Source: an uncultured Candidatus Saccharibacteria bacterium (GTDB lineage Bacteria; Patescibacteriota; Saccharimonadia; Saccharimonadales; JAGQNK01). Taken from it: 64,000 bases of DNA. A program made the position numbers and the translations under genes. Below, one piece after another: positions 23,390 to 29,276 of the stretch. The stretch covers positions 41,687 to 105,686 of the forward strand of contig CAZWRG010000001.1 in NCBI GenBank assembly GCA_964636355.1, written 5' to 3'. Position 1 is the first letter of the stretch. Each line of letters starts with the position of its first letter. Under the pieces are notes generated by a model that had not been told where the DNA came from, made no database searches, and saw only the letters and a program-made list of their open reading frames with translations.

Positions 23390-25591
23390 TTACTTATTTT
23401 TTAGTTCTCGGGCGGCAGCTTTCATGCTGAGATTTAAGCGGCCCTTTTCGTCGATGGCGACCAGCTTAACAGTTACCAGGTCGCCTTCTTTTACTACATC
23501 GCTTGGCTTATTGACTCGCTCTTCACTCATTTCACTGACGTGAACCAGGCCGTCTTTGCCAGGCAGGATTTGTACAAATGCCCCAAAATCCAGCACACTG
23601 ACAACCGGTACATTCTCATAGATTGTGCCCGGCTCTGGGTCTTCGGTGAGGTTCTTGATGTACTTAATTGCGCCGTCAATCGACTCTTTGTTAGGGCTAG
23701 CAATAAACACTGTTCCGTCGTCTTTGATGTCAATTTCAGCGCCAGTCTCGGCAATAATTTTATTGATCATCTCACCACCCTTACCGATGACTTCACGGAT
23801 TTTATCCGGATTGATCTTAATCGATTCCACTCTTGGCGCATAAGGACTCATCTCTGTCCGAGGCGTATTTAGAACGCTCATCATGTGTTCTAGGATATGC
23901 ATCCGTCCGGGCTTGGCCTTGATTAGCGCCTGACGTAATATTTCCGGGCTCAGACCGTGAACTTTCATATCCATCTGAAGCGCAGTTATACCTTCACTGG
24001 TTCCGGTGACCTTAAAGTCCATATCACCAGCGAAATCCTCGGCGTCGGCTATATCACTCATGATATAAGGCGTCTCACCGTCCATCATGAGTCCCATAGC
24101 AATTCCAGAAACTGGTCGCTTGAGCGGGACACCGGCGTCCATCAGCGCCAAACAGCTTGAGCAAGTGGCCGCCATTGAGGTCGAACCGTTTTGGCTCATG
24201 ATTTCAGTAACTGAACGAATGACATAGGGGAATTCGGCTTCGCTTGGCAAGACCGCTGTCAGGGCTCGTTCTGCCAAATAGCCGTGACCGATCTCTCGGC
24301 GCCCCGGACTACCCAGCCGTTTAACCTCACCTACCGTCCAGCCTGGGGCGTTATAGTGGTGCAAGTAGCGGCGCTCGCCTTCTTTTTCCATGGTATCAAC
24401 TAATTGAGCGTAGCTCAGCGGCGCTAGAGTGACGATGTTCATAGCTTGAGTGACGCCTCTGGTGAATAAGCTGGAGCCATGGGCTCGCGGCAGCAGACCA
24501 ACTTCACTGCTAAGCGGCCTGATTTCATCCAGCTTACGCCCATCCGGTCGAATTTGACGAGAAACTATTTCCTTACGAACATCTTTGTGCAGCGCCATAG
24601 TAAACGCGTCATCGTATTCACGGCGGCGCTCATCGTAGTCTTCGCCCTGCTTTTCGCTAAATTCATCATGAAAAGCCTCACGCAGTTCAGAAATTAGGGC
24701 GTTGCGCTCCGGATATGGCAGTTGCAGATTCTGGCCTAATTTACCATCCAACCAAGCATCTACCTCTGTTTGGATATCTTCATCGGGCAGCAATAATTCG
24801 TATTCTTGCTCGGTAACACCTACCTTTTTAACGAGTTCCTGCTGGAGCTTGATAGCCGGCTGCATGGCCTCAAAAGCCCACTTTACGGCGTCGGCAATTT
24901 CATCCTCGGTAGCTTCATTAGCCCCGGCTTCAACCATCATAACGCCGCTTTCACGGCCAGCCACTACAAGATCGAGCTTACTTTCATCCAGCTCGTCAGC
25001 GCTGTTAAAAGCACTATAATTTCCATCTTTGTCGATACAAACTCGAACGCCGGATACCGGACCGTTAAACGGCGCGCCAGTTAGCGACAAAGCAGCACTA
25101 ACCGCAATCATGGCGATCATGTCAGGGCGAAAATCAGGGTCCATACTAAGAACCGTAGCGATTCCCTGAACCTCCTGGCGATAACCTTTTGGCCACAGCG
25201 GGCGAATTGGTCGGTCGATGAGTCGGCCAATCAAAACCGCATCATCACTGGGGCGGCCTTCGCGCTTGATAAATCGGCTGCCGCTGATTTTTCCGGCGGC
25301 GTACATTTTTTCTTCGTAATCAATACTTAGCGGAAAATAATCCATACCGCTGACAGGCTTATTGCCAACCATAGCCGTACCAAGCACCACGGTATCACCG
25401 TAACGCACCAGCACAGATGATGAGGAGCGAAATCCGACTCGTCCCACTTCTAAACTTAAGGTTTTGCCGCAGAACTCAGTCTCGACTTTGATTATATCTT
25501 TTCCGAATGGGTTGATAGTTTGTCCCATTAGCTTCCTTTCTTTCTTGCCCGCCTTAACTTTAAGACAAAGTTTGGTGGGCCAGGGTGACAA
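23390..25591 (-). CDS. pnp: Polynucleotide phosphorylase
   Basis: 733 aa. Two RNase PH-like domains, then KH and S1 domains at the C-terminus. Adjacent to rpsO. Confidence 0.95.
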   Translation of the reverse strand: MSPWPTKLCLKVKAGKKERKLMGQTINPFGKDIIKVETEFCGKTLSLEVGRVGFRSSSSVLVRYGDTVVLGTAMVGNKPVSGMDYFPLSIDYEEKMYAAGKISGSRFIKREGRPSDDAVLIGRLIDRPIRPLWPKGYRQEVQGIATVLSMDPDFRPDMIAMIAVSAALSLTGAPFNGPVSGVRVCIDKDGNYSAFNSADELDESKLDLVVAGRESGVMMVEAGANEATEDEIADAVKWAFEAMQPAIKLQQELVKKVGVTEQEYELLLPDEDIQTEVDAWLDGKLGQNLQLPYPERNALISELREAFHDEFSEKQGEDYDERRREYDDAFTMALHKDVRKEIVSRQIRPDGRKLDEIRPLSSEVGLLPRAHGSSLFTRGVTQAMNIVTLAPLSYAQLVDTMEKEGERRYLHHYNAPGWTVGEVKRLGSPGRREIGHGYLAERALTAVLPSEAEFPYVIRSVTEIMSQNGSTSMAATCSSCLALMDAGVPLKRPVSGIAMGLMMDGETPYIMSDIADAEDFAGDMDFKVTGTSEGITALQMDMKVHGLSPEILRQALIKAKPGRMHILEHMMSVLNTPRTEMSPYAPRVESIKINPDKIREVIGKGGEMINKIIAETGAEIDIKDDGTVFIASPNKESIDGAIKYIKNLTEDPEPGTIYENVPVVSVLDFGAFVQILPGKDGLVHVSEMSEERVNKPSDVVKEGDLVTVKLVAIDEKGRLNLSMKAAARELKNK

Positions 25592-25705: not shown

Positions 25706-25972
25706 CTATCTTCTAATTCCAAGCTTTTTGATTAAGCCCAGATACGCCTGACTATCTTTATCGGCGATATATTTAAGCAGGCGCTTGCGCTTGCCGACCA
25801 TTTGCAGCAAACCGCGGCGGGCCATGTAGTCGTGCTTGTTGACCTTTAGGTGCTCAGTCAACTCCTTGATTCGCTCAGTCAAAATGCCAACCTGAACAGC
25901 CGGGCTGCCAGTATCATTCTTGTCTTTTTGGAGGTCTTTGATGACCTTAGTCTTCTTTTCTGCACTAATCAA
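25706..25972 (-). CDS. rpsO: 30S ribosomal protein S15
   Basis: 88 aa. ...HLKVNKHDYMARRGLLQMVGKRKRLLKYI is the S15 signature. Confidence 0.9.
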   Translation of the reverse strand: MISAEKKTKVIKDLQKDKNDTGSPAVQVGILTERIKELTEHLKVNKHDYMARRGLLQMVGKRKRLLKYIADKDSQAYLGLIKKLGIRR

Positions 25973-26092
25973 AATTAGGTTCCTTACTATTAAATGATGA
26001 AAGAGTTTGATGGCGTTAGCAAGATTCTAGCACACCTTCCTCTGTTATGCAACCACTTAAGCCATCAAGCTACTGATAATCTCTGCAGCCTT

Positions 26093-28516
26093 CTAGGCAA
26101 CATGCCAGCCATTAGCGCTGATTTTAGTAAGGACCGCTCGTTCATTTTGAGATATTGAGGCCGTGCCAACTGCTGTTGCGCCAGCACCAGCTTCAATACT
26201 AACTACCCCTGTGCCTAAGTTAATAACCGGGATTATAGCTCCCACCGGAATGGCGGCAGCGCTATTTTGGGGCAAACTAAGAGTCGAAGCCGAGCCATTA
26301 TTCATAGTAATTTGCTTACCTGCATCGCTTAACACCAATGTGTAGCTAGTGCCGGTCTGAGCATTTATGGCTGGTGCAATATTAGCCTGCAGAGTGCCCT
26401 CACCCTTGTTTATGGTAAGTTGAGCAGCACCGTTCCTAGAAAGATGAAGATCTTGCGCGCTAGTACCAGGACCTAGACTAATGGTTGTGCTTGGTAAACT
26501 AAATGCTAGTGTTGCAAGGGTATGGTTTACTACCGCAAAATTAGGGTTAGGACTGTTATCATAAACATTAAATCCTGGAGACCCTAGGAGTGAAGTAATT
26601 TCCACTTTTCCGGCTGCTTGTTGCCAGGTTTTAGTTGATGCCGAGAGGCTGGCTGTGACCTGAGAAATATCATAATCTGAACGACTGGTGTGGGCATAGG
26701 CTTGACCAATAGGGTCACCGCCGACCACCGCTGATACATGCCTGGATATCATGTGCCTTATGTATTCGCCAGGATGAACATTATCACTGCTATATACACC
26801 TTCAGGGTCGCCCATAGTACTATAATCACCAACCCCCAGAGAGCCATCAATAAGCCCTACGGACAGATTGGCGGCCAGCTGTCGCCCAACTTCTGCCTCT
26901 GCCCTGGTAAATACCTCATTTATGTAAGGAATCCATAGTGCTATATCGCACGAAGCTACAGACCTAATTGCATTAATTAGACCCGTGATCTTGGTTTCAT
27001 ATAAAGATGTGTCTGCTGCGGTTCCATCATTTGTCCCGGTAGATATAATCACTAAATCAGGCTGTAAGTTGTCAATTAGGTCTAAGCCAGCGAAAGAGTT
27101 ATTGGTAAAGTAATCACTGGCTGCTCCCGAACGAGAAACGTTAAAGACTCTAACTCCCCTGTTTTTGGTACTAGAATGAAAGTATACACCCTCAAGTATC
27201 ACGGTCTGTCCGCCAGTACAAATTGCCGTTAGATGAATATCATGATCGCTATAACTTAGCTCATCAGACGTCCAGATTTGTGAGGCTTTTTGAGCCCCGG
27301 AAGTGTCTATAGTGTGCAGTAAAGTGCCACCAGCACCACCGTCTCTAACTTCTATTAGACCACCAGTAGGCTGACTATTATAGATTATAGAAATAGCATC
27401 CGTTTTGGCCGTATGGGAAGCAATCTGACCGTTAGTCATTGATACCGAGTAGCCACCGATACCAGCCTGAACATCAGAGCCCTCACAAACATTTAACCTA
27501 CCAATGCCGGTTGCCGCTTTAGCATAGAGCATAAATCCAGCACTAGCTCTGGTCCCCCCAATGTAACTCAAGTCTTTAATAAGTCTGTTTGGCCAACAAG
27601 TGGTTCCGCCTAATGCTGATATTGAATCTCCAACTACTACGATGTTAACCGGAGAGGTTGGGGCATTGCTCAAAGCGGTAAACCAATTGTCTAAATTTTT
27701 CGGCCTAATATAGACACCTTCAGCTAATCCAGTGGCCTGGGTACTGCCAGAAACTGAGTTATCAACATATGCCTTGACAGCTTTTTGTGAAGGATATCGT
27801 TCGTCACTATTTGCCGTTAGGCTGCCGTCTGTATCCTTATTTGAAACATCTTCCTTAAGATCGAGGGCCTGCTCGGTAGCAGTTGAAAGTGGCTTATCGC
27901 TATCTGCTGTATTGTCGACATTCGATAAACCAACACTACTTTTATCAATTGAAACTGCGCCCGTCTGACCATTAACCGAAGCAACTGCGTTAACCTCTGC
28001 CCCATCTTGAATACCTTCTAGTTTGGATTTTTCAGCAGTTGTGAAGGACGCTGTAATATCATCAAGAACAGCCTGATTAGGATGACTATGTCTGGATGAA
28101 GTGTTAGCCGTGACGTCCGCATGACTTGACACCGCAGCGGCAAAATCAGTTATATCACTTGCTTGGTGATCATGGTTAGCGTCAGCTTTGTCAGCTAAGG
28201 CCGGGACTGTCGGGCTGGCAGCTGTTCCGCCAAGATCTCCAGTCAACTGAACTAGGCCAGGGGTTGTACCGTTAGCCAACGGAGCCCCTGAAGTAGCTAC
28301 CGAATCTACGTAAGCTTTATTTGCAGCATCAGTATTATCTACTGGGCTAGGAACTGTTACGCTACCAGTAAAAGTTGGATTGTTTAATGGAGCTAAGTTG
28401 CCTATTGTTCCAGATGTTTTTAGAGAGCCATCCTGATTATGTTCAACCGACAGGAATTCATTGAGCAAAGTACCCCATTTACCCTTGTCACCGCCTGGTT
28501 CTGGTAGTCTAGCCAT
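26093..28516 (-). CDS. Phage-tail-fibre-like repeat protein fused to an SGNH (GDSL) hydrolase domain, inserted between truB and rpsO
   Basis: 807 aa with no signal peptide. N-terminal half has tail-fibre-type repeats (LNNPTFTGSVTVPSP...AANKAYVD; DHQASDITDF; YPSQKAVKAYVDN). Central region has SGNH blocks GDSIS, GTNDG and DNVH. C-terminal ~200 aa are Gly/Ala/Ser-rich. Confidence 0.65.
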   Translation of the reverse strand: MARLPEPGGDKGKWGTLLNEFLSVEHNQDGSLKTSGTIGNLAPLNNPTFTGSVTVPSPVDNTDAANKAYVDSVATSGAPLANGTTPGLVQLTGDLGGTAASPTVPALADKADANHDHQASDITDFAAAVSSHADVTANTSSRHSHPNQAVLDDITASFTTAEKSKLEGIQDGAEVNAVASVNGQTGAVSIDKSSVGLSNVDNTADSDKPLSTATEQALDLKEDVSNKDTDGSLTANSDERYPSQKAVKAYVDNSVSGSTQATGLAEGVYIRPKNLDNWFTALSNAPTSPVNIVVVGDSISALGGTTCWPNRLIKDLSYIGGTRASAGFMLYAKAATGIGRLNVCEGSDVQAGIGGYSVSMTNGQIASHTAKTDAISIIYNSQPTGGLIEVRDGGAGGTLLHTIDTSGAQKASQIWTSDELSYSDHDIHLTAICTGGQTVILEGVYFHSSTKNRGVRVFNVSRSGAASDYFTNNSFAGLDLIDNLQPDLVIISTGTNDGTAADTSLYETKITGLINAIRSVASCDIALWIPYINEVFTRAEAEVGRQLAANLSVGLIDGSLGVGDYSTMGDPEGVYSSDNVHPGEYIRHMISRHVSAVVGGDPIGQAYAHTSRSDYDISQVTASLSASTKTWQQAAGKVEITSLLGSPGFNVYDNSPNPNFAVVNHTLATLAFSLPSTTISLGPGTSAQDLHLSRNGAAQLTINKGEGTLQANIAPAINAQTGTSYTLVLSDAGKQITMNNGSASTLSLPQNSAAAIPVGAIIPVINLGTGVVSIEAGAGATAVGTASISQNERAVLTKISANGWHVA

Positions 28517-28598
28517 TTTTTTATCTCTATATTACGTCTTATGTATCATATAACTGCCAAACCCCTGCAGTCAAGCCGCTAAAGCTTAAAGAAAACTG

Positions 28599-29276
28599 TC
28601 AAAGAGTGATTAAATCACGCTTCAAGTCTAGCTCAGCAATTGCCCTAGAATCGCTAATACTAAAATCACCTACGCTGATACGCCGAAGATCAGTCATATA
28701 AGCCCCAACCGCCAGTTTTTGCCCAACGTCCCGAACCAAGCTTCTGATATAAGTGCCGCTAGATACATCTGCCATAAAACTGACAAACGGATAATCATAT
28801 TTTAAGTCGGTGATTGAGCGAATATTAACCAGTCGTGGCTCCAGTTTGACGTCCTTGCCTTCTCGAGCCAACTTGTAAGCCCGCTTACCATCTACCTTGA
28901 TGGCCGAATAAATCGGCGGAATTTGCTCAATTTCGCCCACAAATTGCTGCAAAGTGGCCTCTAGTTCTGATTGACTGATGATTTTTTGGTGATCACTTTT
29001 TGTCTTGTCACCCTCTTCGTCATCAGTGGTGCTGGTCTCACCAAGCTTCATGGTTACTTGATAGGTTTTATCTAGTTTCGAGAACTCCTGGGCCCTTTTG
29101 CAGTACGAACCGACCGTCAACACCAACAGTCCGGTGGCTAACGGATCTAAAGTGCCGGTGTGGCCAACTTTTGGCTTTTTTTGACCAGTTTCTTGCTTGA
29201 TAACTCCCCTAACCTTGGCGACCACGTCAAAACTGGTCCAGCCTTTTGGCTTATCAATCAGCAATAATCCATCCAT
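28599..29276 (-). CDS. truB: tRNA pseudouridine(55) synthase
   Basis: MDGLLLIDKPKGWTSFDVV...GHTGTLDPLATGLL, including the catalytic Asp motif. Confidence 0.9.
   Translation of the reverse strand: MDGLLLIDKPKGWTSFDVVAKVRGVIKQETGQKKPKVGHTGTLDPLATGLLVLTVGSYCKRAQEFSKLDKTYQVTMKLGETSTTDDEEGDKTKSDHQKIISQSELEATLQQFVGEIEQIPPIYSAIKVDGKRAYKLAREGKDVKLEPRLVNIRSITDLKYDYPFVSFMADVSSGTYIRSLVRDVGQKLAVGAYMTDLRRISVGDFSISDSRAIAELDLKRDLITL

Follow-up and report, generated by a model that had tools for sequence, protein, structure and literature searches.

A phage-type fibre gene with a predicted SGNH esterase domain in the variable truB-rpsO slot of a Saccharibacteria chromosome

The gene between truB and rpsO

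The window analysed here, i.e. the whole 64-kb stretch of DNA, belongs to a genome of Saccharibacteria and contains, between truB and rpsO, an ATG-initiated open reading frame of 807 aa on the minus strand (26093..28516), the strand that also carries truB, rpsO and pnp; both the position and the co-orientation claimed in the earlier note are borne out by the ORF list and by the flanking Pfam matches. The gene is real, given that the database holds a protein identical to its product along with full-length homologs (E down to 4e-179), and its ATG start is supported by an M[AP]RLP motif that also opens the homologs. The features on which the argument turns are the following.

28599..29276, minus strand: truB, upstream edge of the variable slot (Pfam TruB_N, E 1.7e-51)
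28545..28574, minus strand: sigma-70-like promoter candidate TTGACT-18-TATGAT (10/12 positions; consensus scan and sequence)
26093..28516, minus strand: the whole gene, predicted phage-tail-fibre-like SGNH esterase, 807 codons plus stop (ORF list, database homologs, PHROG tail families)
28412..28516, minus strand: N-terminal module, aa 1-35 (MARLPEPGGDKGKWGTLLNEFLSVEHNQDGSLKTS), conserved at the very start of the family's proteins
27731..28411, minus strand: fibre shaft, aa 36-262, with DUF5907/PTR-type repeats (NPTFTGxV..., VGLSNVDNTADSDKPLSTATEQAL, KAYVD; tail families phrog_8780, 35419 and 13892)
26681..27730, minus strand: predicted SGNH esterase domain including the inserted beta-sandwich, aa 263-612 (Pfam GDSL; phrog_15881; pLDDT ~85-97)
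27623..27625, minus strand: codon of Ser298, predicted nucleophile, block I (VVVGDSIS; G, D and S invariant in 16/16 homologs)
27161..27559, minus strand: CBM-like beta-sandwich, aa ~320-452, between SGNH blocks I and II (modelled as all-beta)
27125..27127, minus strand: codon of Gly464, predicted oxyanion residue of block II (invariant in 16/16 homologs)
27029..27031, minus strand: codon of Asn496, predicted oxyanion residue of block III (GTND; invariant in 16/16 homologs)
26774..26785, minus strand: block V, DNVH, with Asp578 and His581 of the predicted triad (His in 16/16, Asp in 14/16 homologs)
26096..26680, minus strand: C-terminal region, aa 613-807, a linker and two beta-domains (phage fibre/spike domain matches)
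25973..26092, minus strand: 120 bp separating the gene from rpsO, containing an AAGGA ribosome-binding site and promoter-like TTGCAT-17-TAGAAT (read from the sequence)
25706..25972, minus strand: rpsO, downstream edge of the variable slot (Pfam Ribosomal_S15, E 8e-31)
23390-25591, minus strand: pnp, co-oriented neighbour

To the left of the gene lie, in order, a type IV pilus cluster (~15 kb away), ssb, efp, ftsK, rnj, udg, pnp and rpsO, and to its right truB, a DHH protein gene, rpsT, holA, fpg, polA, a P-type ATPase gene, dnaG and argS, with rpsT, holA and fpg being named from ORF translations. Housekeeping genes thus stand on both sides, and the scanned ORFs of the 64-kb window include no phage gene near it, as the earlier note had maintained; neither a tRNA nor an Rfam match was found in the window, nor a flanking direct or att-like repeat at the gene. 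Its overall GC and codon usage fall inside the range of the neighbouring genes, and its GC3 (0.347) is the lowest of the 32 window genes examined.

Expression together with the housekeeping genes, as previously proposed, is conjectural. The sigma-70-like candidate listed above is situated inside the 82-bp spacer that separates truB from the fibre gene, ~30 nt ahead of the ATG, and remains a candidate only, given that the consensus scan as a whole showed no enrichment over shuffled sequences. On the other side, rpsO keeps a promoter-like site of its own and, on reading of the sequence, a ribosome-binding site ahead of its TTG start; no terminator was predicted in the 120-bp spacer.

Anatomy of the protein and its relatives

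The repeat motifs described previously are all present in the shaft (NNPTFTG at aa 45, AANKAYVD at aa 64, YPSQKAVKAYVDN at aa 241), and its tail-fibre-type character is upheld by the PHROG families: phrog_8780, a 'minor tail protein', matches aa 64-226 (E 1e-26), phrog_15881, a 'tail protein', matches aa 225-594 (E 5e-24), and further tail-fibre families match as well, the tail families together spanning aa 64-594 and 712-806. The window protein is, in other words, homologous to virion tail proteins. Among phages, 223 records match the shaft, mostly minor tail proteins (Gordonia 165, Arthrobacter 12), and 22 match the combined SGNH and CBM module, 20 of them being Arthrobacter or Gordonia minor tail proteins; the apparent enrichment in actinophages owes part of its size to how heavily actinobacteriophages are sampled in databases. 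The shaft aligns, e.g., to gp48 of Arthrobacter phage Pointis, and its identity to actinobacteriophage minor tail proteins is 27-50% in the aligned segments. The DUF5907 and PTR repeats of the window protein score 20.4-22 and 13.9-16.4 bits, respectively, against a cut-off of 27 for both, a threshold that paralogs in two other genomes (L102 and L103) exceed. Predicted as a monomer, the shaft has a pLDDT below 50, which is compatible with an obligate oligomer and proves nothing.

The motifs quoted for the SGNH domain were likewise recovered (GDSIS at aa 296, GTNDG at aa 494, DNVH at aa 578). With 27.9 bits the domain passes the Lipase_GDSL cut-off of 23.6, and with 31.6 bits it falls slightly short of the Lipase_GDSL_2 cut-off of 32.9, while the family profile matches solved GDSL esterases down to E 4e-6. 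AF2 models aa 270-610 and 720-807 with confidence, and the best solved-structure match of the model in Foldseek is the peptidoglycan O-acetylesterase Ape1 (8gkd from Campylobacter jejuni and 4k3u from Neisseria meningitidis; E 6e-15 to 7e-14, TM 0.64-0.67, ~357 columns); TesA and CE2 are matched too, consistent with an SGNH alpha/beta/alpha fold. The earlier note had allowed that careful alignment might reveal no catalytic triad; Ser298, Gly464, Asn496 and His581 are instead conserved in 16/16 homologs, and the homologs that keep the catalytic residues are only 28-48% identical. With blocks I, II, III and V, the profile and the modelled fold all agreeing, the domain can be assigned to the SGNH/GDSL superfamily, and the protein is predicted to be an O-acetyl-esterase with a complete Ser-His-Asp/Gly/Asn set. 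The earlier description of the architecture as a phage-type fibre joined to an SGNH carbohydrate-esterase domain, its catalytic set intact, is therefore retained.

Phage relatives of the esterase module are equally evident. In BFVD, actinophage tail proteins match it with E values down to 8e-24, and in tblastn Arthrobacter and Gordonia minor tail proteins match 93% of it at ~25% identity. The distal C-terminal beta-domain (aa 717-807, nt 26096-26368), for which the model is of high confidence, and its companion match domains of phage fibres and spikes, and the relatives of the C-terminal domain among isolate phages belong to Gordonia and Streptomyces phages. Actinobacteriophage minor tail proteins of PHROG 8780 and 15881, such as gp17-20 of Arthrobacter phages Amigo and Thunderclap, gp29 of Gordonia phage Gudmit and the Pointis protein, share with the window protein both the shaft repeats and the whole SGNH and CBM module, but, unlike the window gene, they are encoded in tail gene arrays; none of the isolate-phage proteins listed unites all four modules of the window protein or spans 80% of its length.

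Ape1 is a bimodular SGNH+CBM35 enzyme (bioRxiv 10.1101/2021.09.23.461501), and the window protein, as modelled, shares its combination of an SGNH domain with a CBM35-like beta-sandwich, inserted in the same arrangement. Foldseek also matched CBM6 and CBM36 modules (E 6e-5 to 5e-4), which were placed on the insert by aligned length and fold, the output giving no query coordinates. The trimeric beta-helix that had been suggested for checking is not favoured by the model, in which the esterase module resembles the SGNH+CBM35 unit of Ape1 and not a beta-helix depolymerase. Identity to Ape1 in the structural alignment is 14-16%, and Ape1 is absent from the PDB sequence hits of both the single sequence and the family profile (E up to 1 and 10); identities of ~25% to isolate phages and ~15% to Ape1 are too low for a substrate to be assigned.

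This likeness nonetheless raises the alternative that the protein acts on the envelope of the Saccharibacteria cell itself, be it in Ape1-like wall turnover or by modifying a receptor and so excluding superinfecting phages. We hold this to be quite improbable, even though the nearest solved fold is that of a housekeeping enzyme. Ape1 is secreted to the periplasm by means of a signal peptide, as are enzymes of its type, and is devoid of shaft, tail-tip module and distal fibre domain, whereas the window protein has no hydrophobic N-terminus and places 262 aa of tail-fibre modules before its esterase domain; wall turnover needs none of these three parts, the phage shaft alone amounting to 260 aa, and at the sequence level there is no kinship to Ape1. 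Superinfection exclusion draws some support from a genuine phage genome (L085) that encodes a homolog of aa 264-806 (36% identical) and an SSB 61% identical to that of the window genome, a weak hint, resting on sequence likeness, that this phage infects Saccharibacteria and one that is tempered by the ~50% identity of the same SSB to that of Deinococcus (counted from the alignment). A precedent exists, as recounted in PMC11934309 (Sci Adv 2024), in free tail fibres that destroy receptors and thereby shield bacterial communities from phage; against this, the isolate-phage relatives of each module mostly infect Actinobacteria and not Patescibacteria.

As the earlier note stated, the protein has no signal peptide (over the first 60 aa, Kyte-Doolittle means of 12-residue stretches do not exceed 0.67), and neither a transmembrane segment nor a recognisable anchor was found in it. 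Two other large surface proteins encoded in the window bear obvious Sec signal peptides. The missing export signal counts against a surface role, as the genome's other surface proteins have clear ones.

A large modular family and a variable chromosomal slot

The 35-aa N-terminal module has no Pfam match, and we found no paper describing it. Of the 120 best homologs, 60 carry it, joined to differing C-terminal domains, and several of the homologs bearing it are located on contigs of 0.3-1 Mb; 10-12 of its 40 columns are invariant. As many as 6,604 protein-cluster representatives match it (E<=1e-3), nearly always at residues 1-39. Matching Streptomyces phage proteins are 61-68% identical, and the same module, at 61-70% identity, opens GiJojo gp34 and proteins of pSt2308, LuckySocke, Alone3 and IMG/VR viral contigs, in which a C-terminal beta-helix stands where the window protein has its SGNH domain. 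Paralogs in Saccharibacteria, too, carry the module fused to a pectate-lyase beta-helix. The window gene accordingly belongs to a large modular family, of which genomes carry several paralogs each, and is not a singular event.

The slot that it occupies is variable as well. Across ~40 related loci, truB and rpsO are separated by as little as 27 bp or as much as 3 kb, often with unrelated genes in between, so that the earlier picture of a conserved truB-rpsO-pnp cluster interrupted by an insertion stands as regards the position of the gene and fails as regards rigid adjacency; the spacer is a variable cargo slot. Family members fill it in three other Saccharibacteria genomes (L033, L102 and L103, with TruB 64%, 63% and 52% identical to that of the window), one of these slots carrying three tandem paralogs, and at least four Saccharibacteria genomes have a slot with 1-4 genes of the fibre/SGNH kind; in L001 and L102 there are 2-4 family genes per locus. 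All genes with a recognisable domain in the family-occupied slots are fibre-type or SGNH, and no capsid, portal, terminase or tape-measure gene was found in those of L033, L102 and L103. By contrast, a truB-based retrieval yielded ~47 representative loci of Saccharibacteria-like type, and of these L033 alone has the slot occupied by a family member. Such patchy occupancy counts against the explanation that we prefer below, and a slot that is empty in most relatives is also a poor fit to a core function in the cell's own wall.

Patchiness and a variable slot are what one would expect of a gene left behind by a phage that once integrated, or of a selfish gene of phage origin that has no present role and is intact by chance; all modules are phage-derived, a relative occurs in a genuine phage, and the low GC3 agrees. 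We nevertheless give this account little credence. The 807-codon frame is unbroken and the catalytic residues are invariant across strongly diverged homologs, there is no phage gene, integrase, tRNA or att-like repeat nearby, the same slot is used in genomes whose TruB proteins are 52-64% identical and holds tandem, diverged and intact paralogs, and the intact members of the family number thousands. Strongly reduced genomes, moreover, tend to shed useless DNA. A plain phage remnant, which relatives with the gene inside an intact prophage were to have revealed, is thus not what the relatives display: the homolog in a real phage does exist, and the slots of the relatives hold family genes in the company of no phage structural genes. 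Should the genes be remnants after all, the finding would amount to no more than an oddity in the dynamics of a variable genomic slot.

A further alternative makes the protein a component of a phage-tail-like structure, particle or appendage, produced by the cell (examples being a tailocin, a tube-like organelle or a gene-transfer-agent-like particle), with the genes for the remaining parts lying elsewhere. The N-terminal module would then dock the fibre on the tip of the structure, which would be assembled in the cytoplasm and subsequently released or extruded, thereby dispensing with a signal peptide, and none of the family members has one. In 27 viral contigs the module heads proteins encoded beside tape-measure and Dit genes, the usual place of tail-tip genes; in phages it is part of a tail-tip protein and may need a phage-type docking partner, a point that also weighs against the explanation preferred below, and its 60-70% identity between phage and Saccharibacteria copies suggests that the partner is conserved. 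Paralogs with a common N-terminus and differing C-termini are likewise usual for exchangeable fibres on one baseplate. Yet no docking partner was found in the window, no phage structural module surrounds the family genes at seven loci of relatives either, and tail tube, sheath, tape-measure, baseplate and capsid genes are lacking both among the scanned ORFs of the 64-kb window and within 10 kb of these seven chromosomal family loci. Genomes of ~0.9 Mb leave little space for a dispersed tail gene set, and we know of no phage-tail-like particle described in Saccharibacteria. We therefore regard this alternative as improbable; if it held, such a particle would be new for the phylum.

A proposed role as a retained receptor-binding fibre, and its possible target

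We are highly confident of the anatomy of the gene, of its phage ancestry and of its status as member of an orphan family. Its function is a more tentative matter. The best explanation overall, to which we accord somewhat less than an even chance, is that of a retained phage-type receptor-binding esterase fibre directed at a cell-wall glycan, most likely of an actinobacterial host; an action of the protein at the surface and directed at the host is, taken by itself, a slightly more doubtful proposition. The fibre would assemble, probably as a trimer as in its phage relatives, and would be exported without the help of a Sec signal peptide; its CBM-like and distal domains would bind a cell-wall glycopolymer, from which the esterase may strip O-acetyl groups, either on peptidoglycan MurNAc or on a wall polysaccharide. 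It might then serve in attachment and host recognition or ready the wall for other enzymes, as phage receptor-binding esterases do, and paralogs with swapped C-terminal modules would confer different specificities.

The host envelope is the most likely target because the phage relatives of the modules are mostly actinophages and Actinobacteria host the cultivated Saccharibacteria. The surmise that the organism is an episymbiont agrees with its lineage, whose cultivated members are epibionts that grow on Actinobacteria and for which several glycan-binding or -degrading envelope proteins are essential in epibiotic growth (PMC10633639); a Saccharibacteria parasite of Gordonia is known as well (PMC11880426). 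Saccharibacteria are also naturally competent (PMC10633639), which offers a possible route to the DNA of host phages.

Fusions of a scaffold to an SGNH esterase with canonical catalytic blocks are familiar from phages, namely from the SGNH de-O-acetylase fibres or tailspikes of Acinetobacter phage Aristophanes (PMC8471582) and Pectobacterium phage Possum (PMC9569702) and from the receptor-binding enzymes of Klebsiella temperate phages (PMC13123978). These proteins resemble the window protein in lacking a signal peptide and its family in combining a conserved N-terminus with an exchangeable enzymatic or receptor-binding part, but they are virion parts encoded in phage or prophage structural modules whereas the Saccharibacteria genes are found among housekeeping genes; the searches that we ran returned no significant sequence match of the window protein to any of them.

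A broader reading, which we consider rather unlikely, is that Saccharibacteria and perhaps other Patescibacteria took over the receptor-binding proteins of host phages as an exchangeable kit for host recognition and wall processing. By way of the 35-aa module, a shared cellular structure, perhaps the end of an appendage resembling a tube or pilus, would be fitted with various heads (SGNH, pectate-lyase beta-helix, glycine-rich and other), and the truB-rpsO slot would be one chromosomal depot in which cassettes are stored and swapped, with the host range of the episymbiont being set by the same molecular logic as that of a phage.

The gene family bears on the open question of how ultrasmall episymbionts locate the right host cell and stay attached to it, in which type IV pili and, among envelope proteins, a few that bind glycans have been implicated so far (PMC10633639, PMC11623550). 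The family is a large one, in which phage receptor-binding and wall-modifying modules reside in chromosomes without a phage, in several diverged copies per genome, and its closest relatives in sequenced phages come mostly from phages of the host phylum. If exposed at the surface, its proteins would be candidate determinants of host range, testable with the toolkit developed for phage receptor-binding proteins, and would be an instance of a cell turning to its own use the means by which its host's viruses attach.

A preprint reports a 'tail fibre-like protein' that, throughout the CPR, co-localises with the pam pilus operon (bioRxiv 10.64898/2026.03.03.709456). Compared by description only, that gene and the window gene are both tail-fibre-like and both reside in Patescibacteria chromosomes; as described there, the former adjoins a surface appendage locus, whereas the latter lies between truB and rpsO with no pam operon adjoining it.

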